Shown one piece after another: positions 8,001 through 63,373 of a stretch of 64,000 nt of DNA. The notes below the pieces were generated by a model, which was given only the letters and a program-made list of their open reading frames with translations, was not told the origin of the DNA and did no database searches. This DNA is from Lama guanicoe (Eukaryota). The stretch covers positions 4,775,802-4,839,801 of the forward strand of contig MU054400.1 in NCBI GenBank assembly GCA_013239625.1, in the 5' to 3' direction. Each line of letters begins with the position of its first letter. The first letter of the stretch is position 1. Position numbers and translations under genes: made by a program.

Positions 8001-8053
8001 GGCTTGTAGTTTTTTGTTGTTTTTTAAATCAATGAGTTAAGACTTCACCTCTA

Positions 8054-8440
8054 GACACAGCAGTTGAGGGCAGGACAAACTGGTGAGAACCAAGATGGCA
8101 GAAGATTCAACTTCCAGTTGACCTTGAGCCTCAAGGCACACCCGCAGGTGCCATGACAGTTCCCAGGGGGACCATAAAAGCCCAGAAAGTGGGCAGGGGG
8201 CCCAATTCCTGGAAATCCTCGGCTCTTCCCCAACATAGTTGGGATAATCCTCCTACTCTTTAGCATATGAAATTACCTGACTCGTAAGAGCTAACCTCAT
8301 GGCCTCTCTCCCTCTTGCCGTTTGAGATGGCCGCATTCTGCCTATGGAATGTGTATCTCCTAAGCCCTTCTCCCTTCTGAGGAGACGGACTGCACTCTGT
8401 CTGTGAGTATCTCCCAGAAAAAATCTACTTAAAAAAAAGA
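8054..8440 (+). mobile_element. ERV1 LTR (U3-R)-derived retrocopy with A-tail and 15-bp TSD
   Basis: Homologous to the LTR at 62118-62742. Ends in an A-run after the poly(A)-signal region. Direct repeats AAGACTTCACCTCTA (8039-8053) and AAGACTTCGCCTCTA (8441-8455). Confidence 0.8.
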
Positions 8441-8753
8441 AAGACTTCGCCTCTAAATAAGTTTAATTAAGATGTCTGAAAGATGCATTTCTTCCCCCAT
8501 CGCATTTCTGCTTCCTTCCCTATTTGTGAACCTAGCACATTAGAAAAGTGGTACCTAAGGTGCTTTCAAGCATAAATGCACCTGAATGCAGAATTCTCAC
8601 CCAATGGTGAGAAGCATAGAGAGTTCTCATTGCTCGCTTAGCAGTTTCAACATGTCCTCAGGCTGTTTTCTTGCCAGAAATTTGAGCCAGCGAATCGTCT
8701 TATGAGAGAACAAATCAATATGGGACAGGACTGTCACCAGTAACCTCTGCTTC

Positions 8754-14703: not shown

Positions 14704-16134
14704 CGGACAAGTTCTTTCTTACCACTGTGTAGCAAAGTTGTTTGCTTTGTTCAGCAACCCAGAAAACCCGAAGTCGTGGGGGTGTCAGGCCAGTTCCTCC
14801 TCCCCTTGAGGTGGGGAGTCGGGGTGGCTGATTTGATCTACTTTATTGCTTTTTTTTTTTTTGTCCCTTTTCCTCTTTGTTTTGATTGGCTATGCCACTG
14901 TCTCTAACACTGCCACCCTCCCACCCCCTCTCCCCCCATGCAGTTTGATAAAAGAGAGGCTAGCCAGTTGAAGAGGAAAGAGCATATTCTAATTTTCATG
15001 AACTAAAATGAGAGCCCTCTCTTGCCACTGACCCTGGAGAGTCTTGGATTGTAATAGTACAAAAGGGGCAGACAACTGTCCTTTTGAACACACACACCAA
15101 AACATCAGGGGAAGCGCAGTGGGGTTTGCCGGGATAGTTCATGGTAGACCAGAAGGCTAAACCCGCTGGCTTTGCCAATGTTGTATTGACTTCTGAAGGC
15201 CCTTGAGAACAAGTCCCCAATTTTTTTGCTCTTAATCCAAACTGAAACCTAATCACAGATTAACTCTTCAGATATGACTGGACACAACTGAATTCAACAA
15301 GACTTTCCCCAACAGTCAGACAAAGGGGCTTTGTGAATCATGATGGTAAAGGGGACTCCAGTAAAGGCAGAAAGGGTGGTTCTGTGGGAACCAACCTGCT
15401 CCTGTAACTGAATAGTCAGTGTTTCCTGAGTCGGGTCTGGGGACTCCAAGGGCAGGATCACACATTAACAGACACTGACTCTTTTTTCCCTCCCTGAAGC
15501 TAAATAGTTTTACTGAGGCTCTCGGTCCAGGCTAATAGAGTGAAAAGGGGGAGGAAATGGTAAAAAGGAAAAAAGAAGTGGGAGAGGAGCAAGTTAGGAG
15601 GAAGAGGGGGAAGGCTGGATTGGGGAGTTGTTTGAAAGTGGTAGTGGAACCAGGGACTGGATAAAAACTGTTCATTTAAATAAGGTGATGAGAATGATTA
15701 AGTCTCATAAATTAAAATCACCCTGAATAATCAGCCGGGAGAAATTGTGTCTCAATGAGAGGTATAGGGTAGGAGAGGGACTCGGGGCTGTGTGTGTAGG
15801 AGCTCCAGGTGGGAAGCTGGACATCAGGTTCACTCTCGCATCATCTCAGCATCCTGCTGACTGTGAGAACGTGTTACAGCATCCTGCTTATTCCTCCCTT
15901 TTCTTGCTGCTTTCAGGCCAGTGTCTCTTCATCTCCAACTTGGATTGCGATAGAAAAGCAAAACCCATGACATTCTTTAATGTGTGCTCTATGCAGATAT
16001 TACTAAGGCCCCCATGAAGCTCATTTGGATTCAGATTTATAGAGAAGAGGAAGCACAGTTGAGAGAAGTGATTTCTCCATCCTTCCACCCCCACAGCGGA
16101 GGTTCAGCCTCTGTAGCTACGATTATCCAGATTT

Positions 16135-16554
16135 AAATTTTTTTTAATAAAAGTTGATTTATTTAGAGAGCTGTACATGGCGGGGTGCAGTGGGGTGGTT
16201 AAAGTAAAGGCAGATAACACACTCCATAGACGGCGCAAGCTGTCTCAGAGGGAAAGAGAGAGAGGCCGCGAGGCATGGTGTTGCCAGTTTTTATAATGCT
16301 AATAAGTGAGAGGATTATTCCATCTACTTTAGGGAACGGGCAGGGGTTCCCAGAATCGGGCCACCTCCCTCCCTTTGACCTTCCGTGGTCAGCCTTGGAA
16401 CTGTCATGGTGCCTGTGGCAGTGTCATTCGCCATGCTGGTACCTCACAGTGAGTAATGAAGCTCAGTGTCCGCTGGAGGCCGCCTCCCACCATCTCAGGC
16501 CTGCAAGCCTGTTGTGAGTTGACTGTTTCACCATCCTGGTACCCACTGCTGTGT
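16135..16554 (-). mobile_element. ERV1 LTR (U3-R)-derived retrocopy with A-tail
   Basis: Homologous to the 62118 LTR (gatttatttagagag, cacactccatagac, gtggtcagccttgg). T8 run at 16138-16145 lies just past TTTATT; flanked by AGATTT repeats (16129-16134, 16555-16560). Confidence 0.72.
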
Positions 16555-17667
16555 AGATTTGACATGTTAGTAGCTCTACATATTCTGTAAGTCCAAATTT
16601 TTTTTTCCCACTGCCCTAAGGAATCCTCTGTGTTCCCCCTTATTCACCACTCCCTCCGCCTTACGAAACTGCAATTGACTCAGATGTCTCAGTCCTTTTT
16701 GTTAGTGGTTCTGTTTTTGGCCATGTCTTAAGAATGGTTACACTTGCACCTTTAATTAATAGTGACATGTGAATCTGTGATTACCTAAAATCTGTTTTGG
16801 CATAAGGTGTCCTGGGGAGGAGAAGACAACGTTCCACATTTTGTTGGATTTTGTGGTATTTGCTGTGTGAAAAAAGCACTTCTCACCTGATCACTTGACA
16901 GCTACATCAAGGGAGACTAACTCTGTGAATGCACATAAGTTTAAAACTTTTGTTTGGGATTTTTCTCGCTGATTTTTTGGTTTGCATTTACCGTATGTTG
17001 CAAATATCTTATAAGAAAACTTTGATAAAGTAGCAAGAATTTAACAAACTCGTTGTGCAACATTGTCTAGCTATTTCCTCTTTATAATTCGAATTGCACC
17101 CATTTTCCTTTTTCTGGCCTTTATTTTTATATTTCTCCCCTTTTAGGCTCCCCCCCTTTAAAAAAAATAATTGTGATCAGCTTTCAGAGAATTTTGCTGT
17201 TACAGAATACCTAGAGAATGAAGAATTTCTAAAATGACAACCTGTAATTGGAACAATTACTGAGTAAGACTTTCTTATTCAGGTTTTTAGAATCTGAGTT
17301 ACACCTGAAATTTCCTGGAGTGGTTTCTGGGACCATATGTGTTGAAAGATTCCTAAAATAAACACAAATAAAGGTAGTTTGTCATCCATCCTTGTTCTAA
17401 AGCTGAATCTTAAAAGCTGTTTGCTCTCTGGGTTGCAGTGCCGATGATGTTAAGACACAGGTAAGCAGCAGGTGGTGTTAGTTTCCAACACGGAAGGGCC
17501 AAAAGTAACCTCGTACTTCCCTTCACGACCGTGTGGATTTGGGGATTAAATGGCTCACTTCTCTCTGGATGCTCCTTTTGACAAATGAGCCTTGGTTTCT
17601 GGGATGTTGACAGGAGGGTCGCGGCCAGCACCCTAACCCTTGCTCTCTCTGCGCTGTCTCTCTCGAG

Positions 17668-35045: not shown

Positions 35046-35194
35046 GAGGAAGGGTAGAGCTCAAGTGGTAGAGCGCATGCTTAGCGTGCACGAGTCCTGG
35101 GTTCAATCCCCAGTACGTCCTCTAAAAATAAATAAATAGACCTAATTACCCCGCCCCCTAAAAAACACATACAAAATAAAATATTTTTGAAAAA
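35046..35194 (+). mobile_element. tRNA-Ala-derived SINE (camelid Vic-1-like)
   Basis: A box (AGCTCAAGTGG), B box (GGTTCAATCC), A-rich tail; 14-bp TSD GAAAATGCATAGAA at 35032-35045 and 35195-35208. Confidence 0.9.
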
Positions 35195-36844: not shown

Positions 36845-36950
36845 GTTGGGTATAGCTCAGTGGTAGAGCACATGCTTAGCATGCACAAGGTCCTGGGCTC
36901 AATCCCCAGTGCCTCCATTTAAAAAAAAATAAATAAATAATAATAATAAT

Positions 36951-40144: not shown

Positions 40145-40266
40145 AGGGGAGGGTATAACTCAGTGATAGAGTGCTTGCGTAGAGAGCATGAGGTTCCGGA
40201 TTCAATCCCCAGTACCAACGTTAAAATAAATAAAAATAAACAAATACGACCTAATCACCCCCCACC
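40145..40266 (+). mobile_element. tRNA-derived SINE (diverged)
   Basis: ggggagggtataactcagtgatagag...; TSD AAAAGGCAATGC / AAAAGGTAATGC. Confidence 0.85.
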
Positions 40267-40796: not shown

Positions 40797-41260
40797 AGTA
40801 AAGAGTTGTGTTCTAGGAAATAGATGGGAAAGGAGGGGGAGATGGGGTCAGCTGCAGAGTTTGGGCGTGGATGTCTGGGCAGAGAATGACGCCCAGGGAG
40901 ATCTGATCAGAAAGAGACCTTGGGAAGGCGCTTGGGTTTTGGGCCACGTGTGTTCAGTGAGTGGGTTAGGTTTGAGGACTTACCCTCTGACTGCTCAGAC
41001 CAAGAGACTGGATGGAAGGTGGTCTTAGTAAAGAGTTGGTTGTGTTCTAGGAAATAGATGGGAAAGGAGGGGGAGATGGGGTCAGCTGCAGAGTTTGGGG
41101 GTGGATGTCTGGGCAGAGAATGACGCCCAGGGAGATCTGATCAGAAAGAGACCTTGGGAAGGCGCTTGGGTTTTGGGCCACGTGTGTTCAGTGAGTGGGT
41201 TAGGTTTGAGGACTTACCCTCTGACTGCTCAGACCAAGAGACTGGATGGAAGGTGGTCTT
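40797..41260 (+). repeat. Tandem duplication of two units (230 bp and 234 bp)
   Basis: 40797-41026 versus 41027-41260: identical on my reading except a 4-nt GTTG insertion and one C/G substitution. Confidence 0.95.
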
Positions 41261-44241
41261 GGTGGCCAGGCGAGGTCGGTCAGCAGCTTGGACCAGGCTC
41301 AGTTACTTTGTGAGTTTTGGGCAAGAATAGAAATAGAAGCTGACTTTCCTGTCTTACACAGGATTTAAAGATACACGGATTTAAAGTATACGCTTAAAGC
41401 TAACAGGGAATAGCATGTGTTCTAGGCTCCCACTGTCACAAACGCGGCTTCATCACCACCAGGCTCAGGTTTAGGATTCTAACTCCTTGAGGTTCACTGC
41501 TGCTTCCCCTCCTCGTCCCAGGTCTGGCTGTGGGCACACAAGAGGCCCACACCCACTCACCCCAGGCCTCACTGCTGTGCAGCCACATCCGCCAGCCTTG
41601 GTGGGGGGTGATGAAAGGGGGGACACAAGAGAACATTTCAAGGCATGAGCCAAGACCTAGGTAACACCCTAGTCCCAGCTCTCCACTCCCCGGGCAGCGT
41701 CACTGCACCTGCTCCGCTGGCCCAGCCCGTGAGGGCCTGACCAGCCTGGGCACAGGGGGTTCCTGGAGCTTCTGTTAAATATAGACCACAATGGACTTCT
41801 GGGCTCCCCGACTCCAACGAAATCAGTGTTCTGCCACCTTCTGGAGCCCGCCGGGAGCACACCCAGTGCCTTCCTCTGCCCCTCTCCGCCTCAGAACCAT
41901 AGTCTGCATTGGGGAGCACACGCTGCTTAGGCTGCTGGAAGCTGCCTTCGTGGGGACACTGGTCTGGGCCCGCCGCCCGCCCCTGCTGCGACATCTAGTG
42001 GTGAAAAGTGAAAATGCGCCACCCACCAGGAAAAGAGATTTCAGACCCTTGTCACAGACGTCTGTATCAAATTCAGTAGTGTCCAGATTCTCCTAGGTTC
42101 TCAGGGAGCATGAGGAGGGGTCATCCTCAAGGGCGAGGTTAGGTTTCCTTAGGAGAAGACTCGAGTATATTTTGCTTTTCCCTGCCTTGCCTTTCAAGAT
42201 CATGGTGGATGCTGTCAGTCTTGATGGAGAGAGCAGTTTCCTGGCGCATCTTCCCAAAGGCAGGCTGAAGGGAGAATGAGGCGGTCCCAGCCCAGGCCAG
42301 CAGCTCCCGGGGGGAGGGAGAGGGGGTGTCAGGGACATGTGTGAAGGCCCCACGCAGAGCGGGACCGTGGGATGGCTTACAACTCTATACCCCATTCTTT
42401 GGCCTTTGAATCAATTTCTCACCTGCCCACCATTCATCTCCACTTGGAAGGTGAGAATGTGTGTGTATGTGTGTTGCTGTGACCATCCAGAATCCAGGAC
42501 GTTCTAAAAGCCAAGCTCTAAGTCCGATGAAGCAGTATTTTCATGGACAAAGACTTCTTGAAGGTGGTTATTATTTGAGAAACAGCCTGTGAGCAGGTAA
42601 CAGATTCCGATGAAGGAACGATGCAGCCTCAACCCGCATTTCTGATAAAGAATTGAAGCCCCCTGCAGCCCCCCAATGACGTGGAGCCCGTTAACACGGG
42701 CCAGCAATCCAAGTCATTTACTCAGGAGAAACAAGGTGCCAAAATGAGGTGCACCCTTTGTCTATGCAAATCCAGAGCAAGGGGACCCCTTGCCATTCTG
42801 CTTGCATTGTTCGTAGCAATGACTTCTAAGTCGTACTTTAAATTGGGACCCTGCACTAACTGGGAAGTGTCTTCCAAGTGGGATGAACTGGAAGGGGCCC
42901 TCCTTGCACAGTCCCCTGCTTGTAACTCAGGCACGTCCCCGCTTTGAGGTGAGATTCTGCTCTCCCTGTGCAGCTCCCCGTTTATCCCCGGCCCCACCCC
43001 CTTTCCTCGCGGGGAGACCCGGGGTGAGTTCTGCCTCTGCCCTGGGCGAGTGCCTTGGCCTCTTTGAGCCTTGGTTTCTGCATCTGAAAGGGAGAACCGC
43101 CGCCCTGAGCACAGAGGCTTCTTTCAGGTTTAATAAGGAATGTAAGAGAGCACAGTGTAAGCTGGAGGATAGACACGGGGAGCTCCTGCTGCAGACACGG
43201 GAAGTGCGTCTGTCTCAGCTCCTCTGGGTGTAATGAAAAAGAATTCATGACCCTTGTTAAGGACGGTCAGGTTGACTCTATCCAGGAGGTACTGCCGTGG
43301 GCCTGGTAGCAGAGGAGAGAGATGGGCTCCTTGTTGGAGAGCGACTGCAGCGCGGACAGTTACCGGGCTAGAGTGGAGGGCGTCGTCCTGGGGAGGGGAG
43401 GAGGAGCCGGCCTCGGGCTGCATGCCACAGCTCCAGCAGGCTGCTACCACAGAGCCGCTGGGAGTCTGGTGGGACATGTGAGGCTGGGATGAGAGACGGG
43501 GTGGATGATCGACGTGTAGACCTTGAGGTAGGTCTCTGGGTGCACAGGGCACTTTGCCAACACCATCCCTTTGGAAGCATTCATGTTACATTTGATGTCA
43601 GAGTGTTCACATGTCTGTGTCTCCCCAAGACTGTGGATCTGAAGCAGGTGTAGACCTTCCTGTTCCAGCTCCTGGGAGGTCCTCCATAAATGTCTGTGGC
43701 CGAGTGAATGAGCGAATCTGTGAATTATCCAGTGCTGGGGAGACGGCTGCTTCTCCCTGGGGGGCTGAGAAAGAAGCAAATGGAAAGGTTGTCACGTTCC
43801 CCAGGCCCCTCCCCGGTATTTAGCTCTGTACCTGGTGACTCCCTCCTTCTCATCATCTTGTACCTCACAGGGTCATAAAGGAACAAGATCCCACCGCCCC
43901 CAGAAGGAGCAGGTGCCCCTGGCCAATCTAACAGGCTGACCCCTGTTTCACTGTTAAATTGATCACTTTACAGGAATTGCTTCCCCCCTCCAATTCATTA
44001 TCATCAAAATGCAACGGAAATCGGCAAATCCATAGAGACAGAGCACATTGGTGATGGCCAGTGGTCAGGCAGAGAGGGGAGCAGGAAGTGCCTGCTAATG
44101 GGTACCAAGTTCCCTTGTGGGGTGATGGAAATGCCCTGGGGCTAGATGGCGGTGGTGGTTGTACAGCAGTGTAAGTGTGCTAAAAGCCTCCCAGGGGGAC
44201 ACTTAAAAATGGTTAAAGTGGTGACTTGTATATTATGTGTA

Positions 44242-44654: not shown

Positions 44655-44740
44655 TTTTTTTTAACAGAGGTACTGGGGATTGAACCCAGGACCTCGTGCT
44701 CACTAAGCATGCGCTCTACACTGAGCTGTACCCGCCCCCA
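44655..44740 (-). mobile_element. tRNA-derived SINE
   Basis: gaggtactggggattgaacccaggacctcgtgc...ctgagctgtacccgcccc. Confidence 0.85.
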
Positions 44741-53168: not shown

Positions 53169-53318
53169 GGGGGGAGGGGATAGCTCAGTGGTAGAGTGCG
53201 TGCTTAGCATGCACGAGGTCCTGGGTTCAGTCCCCAGTACCTCTGTTAAATAAAAAAATTACAATAATAAATATACCTAATTACCTCCCACCCCCTCAAA
53301 CAACAAAACAAAACAAAG
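53169..53318 (+). mobile_element. tRNA-derived SINE
   Basis: ggggaggggatagctcagtggtagagtgcgtgcttagcatgcacgaggtcctgggttcagtccccagtacc, followed by a tail with cctaattacc. Confidence 0.9.
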
Positions 53319-56194: not shown

Positions 56195-56290
56195 AAATTT
56201 ATTATAATTTTTTAGTGCAGGTACTGGGGATTGAGTCCAGGACGTGTGCATGCTAAGCACGTGCCCTACCACTGAGCTCTACCCTCCCCC
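56195..56290 (-). mobile_element. tRNA-derived SINE
   Basis: ggtactggggattgagtccagg...ctgagctctaccctccccc. Confidence 0.85.
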
Positions 56291-60790: not shown

Positions 60791-62117
60791 GAACTATCCC
60801 AGAACCGGGAGGGAAGGAAGGAAGGGCAAGTGTTCCATAAAGGGGAAAGTTGCTTCCATTTTGGGGAGGTCACACTTTTTTCCTCTCCTCGACTTCTGCT
60901 TTTTAAAGAAGTGAATGTGCCAGGAAAAGCTAAAGTGCCCTCTGGCCATCACCTCTTGCCAGCTTCCTCTCTCTTCTGTCCAGGGCCGACCTCTGTCATG
61001 GTTCTGCGTCCCTGTCTGGATCTTTCCAGACCTTTTTTATATGTACGTGTGTCAAAAATTGACCTCGCAGTCTAATATCATAACATTCTGAGTCTTTTGC
61101 AAAATGTCAAGCCTTCAGAGAAGTTGCAAGAGTGGTTCAATGAATTCTCACACCCTCTTCGTCTCATTTCACCAACTGTTTAAGTTTTGCTACATTTGCT
61201 TCTCTCTCTTTCCTGTTTATCTATTTGCTTTGAAAACATCATGACTTTATAATTTAGCTTATGTCTCCTAAGGAGAAGGACATTCTCCCACATAACCACA
61301 ATATAATTAATTAGCACCTCCTGGAAATACAACATTGATATAGTATTATCATTGAATGTATAGTCCTCATTCAGGTGTTGGCCACTTGTCCCAATTTCTT
61401 TCACAGCTATTTTTATTCCTTTATGTGTCTGGGGATTCAGAATCCAGCCAAAAATAACCCATTGCATTTGGCTGCCATCCCTCTCTCGGTCTTTAATTAC
61501 ACTGACCTTTTATAAGAAAAAGAGTCAAAGGTCGTCTTTTTGAGAGTCTCCCTTTTGACATTGCCAAGCTGGTATTTTTGGCTTTATTTTTTTTTAGAGA
61601 CAAATGATTCATTTAGTAACAAGGAGTAGAAAGGAATTCTTAGTACCTCTTCCCTCTTCTGATGGCTAAACTGAACTGTGGTGATCAAATTGCAGTACAC
61701 ACAGGAATCCTCTCACGGTCCTTGATCTTTTGCAGAAAAGCAAAGATGCCAGAGTCACAGGACTTGGTGACTGTTGTTTTCTAGACAGAAGTGCTGGGTG
61801 CTGTGCTTTCTGATGTGGCAGTGGTCGGGACATTCTCTTTGTCTTCGGGTTTCATGGCAGGAAACAGAAGCGCTTCCTTGATGTTATTGGAGTCTGTGAG
61901 AAACATGGCGATGCAGTCGATGCCCGTGCCCCAGCCACCAGTGGGGGGTAACCTGTACTCCAGGGTGGTGCAGGAGGTTTCATCTGTGAACATGGCCTCA
62001 TCAGCCCCGACAGCTTTGGCCTTGGGCTGTTCATCAAAAAGCTGTTGCTGTTGCATGAGGTCATGCAGTTCGGTGTAGGCATTGCATATCTCCTTTTTCA
62101 TGACAAATAGCTCAAAG

Positions 62118-62742
62118 TGATGCAGGAAAACGGACGTGGGGCATGAGGGGGGCCGAGTCCCAGGTCTCGGTTGTGCCCTGCCAAGTGTGGGTCCTTGGCT
62201 TCGTGCAGGAAAAAATTCAAGTGTGAGCCACCGTTGAGTAAAGGTAGATTTATTTAGAGAGACACACACTGCATAGAGTGTAAGACAAGAGAAAGGCAAG
62301 GAAAAAGGTGTGGGAATTGGGTGCTCGGATTAAAGTAAAAGTAGGTACACACTCCATAGACAGTGCGGGCTGTCTCCAAAGGGGAGAGAGCGTGCCAAGG
62401 GCCACTAGGCGTGGTGTTGTCACTTATTATGGTCTCAGTAGCTTAACAAGCCCCACAGGTGGGATCAATCCAACTGCCCTGGGGAAGGAGCTGGGATTCC
62501 CAGGGACTGGGCCACCACCCGTCCTTTGGCCTTTTGTGGTCAGCCTTGGGGCTGTCACGGTGCCCACGGGCATGTTATTTGATCACACTGTTACAATGAG
62601 CGTATAATGAAGCTCAAGGTCTACTAGAAGTTAAACCTCTTAATCCTTAAGACCCACTAGGAAGTGAATCTTCCACCATTTTGGTGTTAAATTGCTGCCA
62701 TTCCTTGAGTGGCTGTGCCCTGCCCCCTTCCCTCCTGTCTCA
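62118..62742 (-). mobile_element. ERV1-class solo LTR (625 bp) inserted in the KARS1 pseudogene
   Basis: TG...CA termini; 4-bp TSD AAAG at 62114-62117 and 62743-62746; AATAAA on the minus strand near 62250; KARS1 sequence resumes on both sides. Confidence 0.92.
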
Positions 62743-63259
62743 AAAGCATTCAGTTGGACCTCTTTAGAGCATTTGAAGAGGGTTCATTATCTGTGGGTGA
62801 TCACAGATGAATGTAGGATTGACTCATGTCATTTCCAAGAACTCCCCGACAAGCTTATCAAGGAGCCGGGCTGTGGACCAAGGCGGAGGGCATTCACCAG
62901 CTTTTGTTGCACAGATATCATCAAGAATTTTGTGAGTTTCTTCAGTTTCAAAGAGGTTAGTTTCTGGCAGCTCCATCCCCAGGGCTTTCTCAAGCTCTTC
63001 TACCACGCTGATTTTCTGGAAGGATGGGGTGAAGTCAGTTTCATCTGCTTGGCCCTCTGGGCCATCTGGATGGTAGGTGACCTTGTAATTGCCTGTAACG
63101 TGCTTCACCGTCCTTGAAATCATCTCCGTGATTTCCATGAGATCATGAGTCTGCATAGGCCATGTAGAATTCACATTGTGGGTCAGATCAATTCCTTCAT
63201 TACGGAACTGGCATCCAACTTCATAAACCCAGTCAACGCCACCAACCACCAGCATTTTA

Positions 63260-63373
<114 letters not shown>

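Follow-up and report, generated by a model that had tools for sequence, protein, structure and literature searches.

A probable L1-processed copy of ERV1-class RNA in the guanaco genome and a TINE-like pool of short LTR retrocopies

Introduction

The L1 machinery retroposes RNA of endogenous retroviruses (ERVs) into copies with the structure U3-R-poly(A), as described in PMC5016936 and PMC7245038. In the HERV-W pseudogenes processed by L1 the 3' LTR is present as U3-R followed by poly(A), the insertion site is of the TT/AAAA type and the target duplication measures 5-15 bp; short truncated HERV-W copies are also reported, and Pavlicek et al. are cited there (PMC5016936). The second closely related system comprises TINE1/2/3 of Tarsius, which derive from LTR RNAs reaching from the TATA box to the poly(A) site (PMC5059674 and PMC5322556). 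According to a reviewer comment in PMC3183009, TINE1 occurs in other primates too. In PMC8605555 nearly all of the SINEs listed are MIR. No description of a short retroposon derived from a camelid LTR was found in the papers searched; this search covered neither the repeat libraries Dfam and Repbase nor subscription journals, and such a family may be contained in the PMC8605555 supplements.

Here we analyzed an LTR-derived element with an A tail that a first-pass annotation had flagged in a stretch of 64,000 nucleotides from Lama guanicoe; this whole stretch is called the window. With its U3-R-poly(A) anatomy the window element is similar to the HERV-W pseudogenes, but it belongs to another, apparently ERV1-class group in another mammal and contains neither internal sequence nor a 5' R-U5 (comparison with PMC5016936). 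It differs from the TINEs, as portrayed in PMC5059674 and PMC5322556, by its 5' end, which is located about 260 nt upstream of the TATA box and not at the TATA-directed start (R).

Results

Structure of the window element

The window element consists of the following parts, given from its upstream to its downstream flank:

16555..16560, no strand: upstream copy of a 6-bp duplication, AGATTT, directly at the 5' edge of the element
16146..16554, minus strand: ERV1-type LTR piece (retrocopy, about 410 nt), U3 from +45 through the poly(A) site
16268..16554, minus strand: U3 part of the element, beginning at +45 and thus lacking 44 nt at the U3 start
16289..16295, minus strand: TATA box of the LTR (TATAAAA), with R starting 28 nt downstream
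16146..16267, minus strand: R region, with the 5' edge set by analogy with R-start retrocopies
16158..16163, minus strand: poly(A) signal AATAAA, 12 nt before the A8 tail
16138..16145, minus strand: A8 tail, placed at the poly(A) site of the LTR and separated from the duplication by three T
16129..16134, no strand: downstream copy of the 6-bp target-site duplication, AGATTT (chance about 0.7-3%)

The tail, the signal and the flanking repeats were thus confirmed as annotated. U5 is absent; at the R/U5 boundary the LTR sequence gives way to the poly(A) tail, and this junction is the same as in 501 matches across the genome. The insertion is present in contigs of four DNA runs with four organism labels, and both junctions are bridged. 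No empty site that could confirm the 6-bp duplication was seen among these contigs, which reveal the presence of an insertion but not its absence. A tree of the R region groups the window element with solo LTRs of its own subfamily (support 98/89).

The insertion site reads TC|AAAT and the duplication comprises 6 bp only. Matches of at least 6 bp occurred in 141 of 20,000 random window flanks, in 3 of 115 foreign tails and in 1 of 37 foreign flanks, so the duplication exceeds chance only modestly.

The second retrocopy and the source LTRs

Two further LTR-derived elements of the window were used for comparison:

8039..8053, plus strand: upstream 15-bp duplication of the second retrocopy; its partner is 8441-8455, with one mismatch
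8054..8438, plus strand: second retrocopy, from another LTR subfamily; U3 from +44, R and an A8 tail (8431-8438)
62118..62742, minus strand: complete solo LTR of a related subfamily with TG...CA ends and the 4-bp duplication CTTT; reference for U3-R-U5 within the window

The copy at 8054 has a solid duplication (14/15 bp), clearly of the variable-length L1-type kind, and uses AAAAAA instead of AATAAA as poly(A) signal. In agreement with the first-pass annotation, both copies look like retrocopies made by L1. The reported identity of ten letters between the reverse complement of 16545-16554 and positions 8055-8064 is also correct, and both starts lie some tens of nucleotides inside U3 as proposed. 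Mapping on real LTR copies placed them at +45 for 16146-16554 and at +44 for 8054; the ends of the two copies are therefore one base apart and not the same.

The bodies of the two copies are as diverged as the annotation had stated. They agree in 247 of 345 aligned columns (72%), and the solo LTR at 62118-62742 is 72% alike to each of them. Genome similarity searches with the two copies yielded 2,451 and 2,874 first-look candidates. The best relatives fall into two LTR subfamilies whose common U3 sequence is limited to roughly the initial 55 nt, and the ten shared letters lie inside this conserved part. The first eight letters of the motif were found in 24 of 50 LTR copies and all ten in 5 of 50. 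As the two copies belong to different subfamilies, they had no common master, and one master element for both is ruled out. The extra G at position 8054, for which a cap-derived or a templated origin had been considered, is the LTR's own base (of 22 LTRs examined from that subfamily, 21 could be scored and 19 have G); it is therefore templated, and the cap origin is ruled out.

Among 75 solo LTRs the duplication was perfect at 4 bp in 41 cases and in none at 5 or 6 bp. TG...CA ends, a 4-bp duplication and an upstream purine tract are the rule for ERV1-class elements. The LTR source shows all three characters, and by the 4-bp duplication pattern the source LTRs would type as ERV1 class. Since the solo LTRs carry 4-bp duplications, the tailed copies arose by another route.

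Distribution of 5' ends among A-tailed copies

A pattern for the junction between R and the A tail gave 501 matches in the genome and 0 in the control, and its counterpart continuing into U5 gave 1,732; about one in five matches to the R/U5 junction is thus an A-tailed retrocopy. For a tally of 5' ends the copies were chosen by this 3' junction only, and the 5' ends were classed by hand with the help of alignments and scans for target-site duplications. Set 1 (115 copies) contained 25 copies from a batch of 26, one duplicate being dropped, and 90 of the 100 listed among the 501 junction matches, of which the remaining 10 were already in the set. Set 2 (51 copies) was obtained from 98 matches, which contributed 54 new loci minus 3 solo LTRs. 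Of the 44 rows left out of set 2, 33 were in set 1 or duplicated it, 7 were of the U5 type, 3 were long copies from the similarity search, one was the window copy and one was probably a duplicate; one row is counted twice here.

The first-pass annotation had proposed to plot such ends on the LTR, and had regarded random scatter or continuation to the TG start as evidence against a family with a sharp start in U3. This is largely what the 166 copies revealed. The ends pile up at the start of R (105 copies; 68 in set 1 and 37 in set 2), about 29 nt downstream of the TATA box. Another 23 (18+5) start inside R, and 22 reach or pass the LTR start, namely 21 (16+5) with internal sequence and 1 at the LTR start/polypurine tract (PPT). 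Only 14 (10+4) start in U3, and 2 have another leader. The U3 starts are scattered over roughly positions 46, 105, 115, 128, 144, 150, 165, 170, 220, 227, 240, 280, 306 and 315. A start at +44 to +46 was found once (L258, at +46), that is in 1 of 166 copies, with an upper 95% bound of 2.8% of tailed copies, and in 1 of 14 U3 starts; the chance that at least one of 14 falls in a window of 3-5 nt is 12-19%. L258 is an independent third A-tailed copy with an 11/14 duplication.

The top relatives of each window copy were retrieved as well. None of the other 29 combined an A tail with a start at +44/45, and the 8 A-tailed members among them extend to the LTR start and the upstream polypurine tract. 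A junction search for the subfamily of the 8054 copy detected 6 copies only (2 with internal sequence, 2 with R start, 2 inside R). A class starting exactly at the TG of the LTR was considered and rejected, as most such copies run on into internal sequence and L036 is the only candidate.

Two small groups stood apart. L032 and L117, both with an A tail and a duplication, begin some 30 nt before the usual R landmark and have a similar leader; this leader is absent from the LTRs compared and possibly represents another LTR subfamily. L260, L267 and L289 are long tailed copies whose starts lie within about 30 nt of each other, some 290-300 nt upstream of the LTR start, which could reflect a reference edge or a splice acceptor.

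Targeted searches for starts at U3 +44/45

In addition we searched the genome with five patterns, each combining the motif at +45 with flanking sequence that does not resemble the LTR. One pattern gave 135 matches, of which 43 were inspected among the 100 listed. Another gave 176 matches, and 50 were inspected among the 100 listed, including all 31 with at most 2 mismatches. For a third with 44 matches 30 were inspected, including all 23 with at most 2 mismatches. The other rows were judged at most by their listed flank. The 8054 copy was the only A-tailed copy among the loci inspected; the others were intact LTRs, 5'-deleted LTRs with U5, fragments and chance matches. The patterns were partly flooded by LTR variants carrying a 2-nt deletion. 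For the fully inspected tiers the simulated sensitivity was 0.21-0.52, which is an optimistic figure, and neither the window copy nor L258 is caught by the patterns. These results rule out an abundant family starting at U3 +44/45 and are compatible with up to ten or twenty such copies per subfamily.

Several other loci are modified in the same part of U3. L087, L231, L320 and L089 are LTR pieces without the first 43-44 nt of U3, and three of them (L087, L231, L320) retain U5. An A-rich run immediately precedes L320, as would be seen with an insertion at that point, and in L033 a SINE is inserted at about +48. L035 and L351 have lost the stretch between two short direct repeats of U3, which are about 20 nt apart around +24/+44.

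Short retrocopies starting at R

The copies starting at R end at the LTR poly(A) site, carry an A tail and a long duplication, and are mostly 110-180 nt in length. In solo LTRs the landmark of their start is located 28-29 nt after the TATA box. An unconstrained scan for duplications over 1.3 kb gave many chance hits, and the scan was confined to the vicinity of the homology edge, with shuffled controls. In 37 of the 66 R-start copies of set 1 with the landmark the duplication exceeded the 95th percentile of 264 shuffled pairs. These 37 duplications comprise 9-20 bp, many at TT|AAAA-like sites, and TC|AAAA is also seen. Although the scan was free over 25 nt in each direction, 27 of the 37 begin not more than 1 nt from the landmark; part of this sharpness is built in, because the class was assigned by hand. 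About 63% of the sampled copies start at R, and applied to the 501 matches this gives about 315 copies as a floor, so the pool probably exceeds 300.

This pool is real and TINE-like. The suggestion of an LTR-derived SINE-like family therefore holds insofar as a family with a fixed start exists; the start is not at ACACAGCAG in U3, but at R, the position assigned in the same annotation to normal LTR transcripts.

A tree of the R region was built from the window element, 44 solo LTRs, 24 long copies and those 33 R-start copies that measure 135-190 nt, with shorter copies omitted. In several clades the R-start copies interleave with solo LTRs as well as with long copies, and they need 23 label changes (mean after shuffling 28), with an unsettled bootstrap. 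Such interleaving points to many source LTRs. One or a few master sources for the class were considered, and the mixing with solo LTRs in several clades argues against them, at the unsettled bootstrap noted above. We infer that the templates of the R-start copies were short RNAs with both ends in a single LTR, and that many LTRs served as sources. A proviral RNA carries U5 after its first R, and a tailed copy consisting of R only therefore needs termination at the first poly(A) signal.

Like the TINEs, the class spans the LTR from TATA box to poly(A) signal, with A tail, L1-type insertion and a fixed start. It differs from them in number (hundreds versus about 29,000 copies), in length (mostly above the roughly 80 nt between TATA box and signal in the tarsier) and in the interleaving with solo LTRs of several subfamilies, which indicates many sources; the TINE data are those of PMC5059674 and PMC5322556. 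The guanaco lineage would be the second mammalian one, besides tarsiers, with repeated retroposition of short LTR-internal RNAs. To within a base or two, the copies preserve where transcripts of long-dead LTR promoters began and where they were polyadenylated. Annotation would likely label them as LTR fragments and so hide a class of L1 cargo.

Chimeric retrocopies with U6 snRNA are a hallmark of L1. One copy of the tally, L187 (G000:C5323:16039685-16041160), contains at 1138-1243 a full-length U6 snRNA (Rfam RF00026, 95.7 bits) joined to the last part of the LTR R region, followed by an A tail and flanked by a 13-bp duplication. It is like the known chimeras in U6, A tail and duplication, and the partner here is the LTR R region.

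Origin of the window element

The flagged element itself is a routine fossil. With a probability of about 0.8 we regard it as an ordinary 5'-truncated L1 processed copy of an ERV1-class RNA. It is colinear with the 3' end of ERV RNA, and sister copies extend further, into the PPT and internal sequence, or less far. The L1 machinery would have primed on the poly(A) tail of the ERV RNA, and reverse transcription would have copied R and most of U3 before halting at U3 +45. Presumably a longer RNA served as template, with the copy representing the 3' end of a transcript of proviral or read-through origin. The match with the 8054 copy to within one base would be a coincidence at a conserved motif. 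Counting against such a coincidence, only about 0.04 pairs of U3-truncated copies within 8.5 kb are expected per genome if about 100 of them exist, and a further factor of roughly 1 in 100 comes from starts that agree to one base. Only the choice of this pair out of a very large scan makes it unremarkable.

A doubtful alternative is that the subfamilies share a minor, discrete 5' end at U3 +44 to +46, which would give a small set of retrocopies of about 410 nt. It fits the three A-tailed copies, belonging to two subfamilies, that start at +44, +45 and +46, L258 having been found independently. Against it stand the single occurrence among 166 copies and among 14 U3 starts, the five targeted patterns without a further copy among the loci inspected, the lack of a TATA-like motif 30 nt upstream of +44 in the sequences of relatives, and the fact that the three ends are not identical. 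Such an end might stem from a weak second transcription start or from a stop of the L1 reverse transcriptase just downstream of the G-rich start of U3, two variants that even jointly seem rather improbable. If it existed, the LTRs would feed L1 with two RNAs, an abundant R-only TINE-like RNA and a rarer U3-R RNA of about 410 nt, whose TATA-less start or fixed reverse transcription stop at +44 to +46 would be conserved across subfamilies and whose members would be the two window copies and L258; we consider this tentative at best.

Because the 6-bp duplication is weak, the 5' edge of the window copy could also be the result of a later deletion, in which case the copy was once longer and the 6-bp repeat arose by chance. 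The duplication is short and three bases off the tail, and the 5'-deleted solo LTRs L087, L231 and L320 have the same start together with U5. Two observations make this explanation very unlikely: the 6-bp match lies exactly at the homology edge, for which the chance is about 0.7-3%, and the site TC|AAAT resembles the TT|AAAA and TC|AAAA sites of the R-start copies.

The abundant family of capped, non-autonomous U3-R RNAs of about 400 nt from one master source, the strong form of the original suggestion, could claim only the two window copies and L258 and is the least credible reading; it is already largely refuted by the tally of ends and the targeted searches, which added no member, and by the divergent subfamilies, the templated G and a frequency of at most about 3% of tailed copies.

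Other features of the window

The solo LTR at 62118-62742 is located in a broken sequence of a class II tRNA-synthetase with stops (Pfam PF00152, E 3e-11):

62000-63370, minus strand: broken tRNA-synthetase region, Pfam PF00152

This stretch would be a putative processed lysyl-tRNA synthetase pseudogene. Six tRNA-like A-tailed repeats were detected with the Rfam tRNA model at 35052-35121, 36848-36917, 40149-40220, 44665-44735, 53175-53245 and 56216-56286, and are read as putative tRNA-derived SINEs. At 40805-41263 the window contains two tandem copies of 225 nt with 99% identity, which represent either a recent duplication or an assembly artefact.
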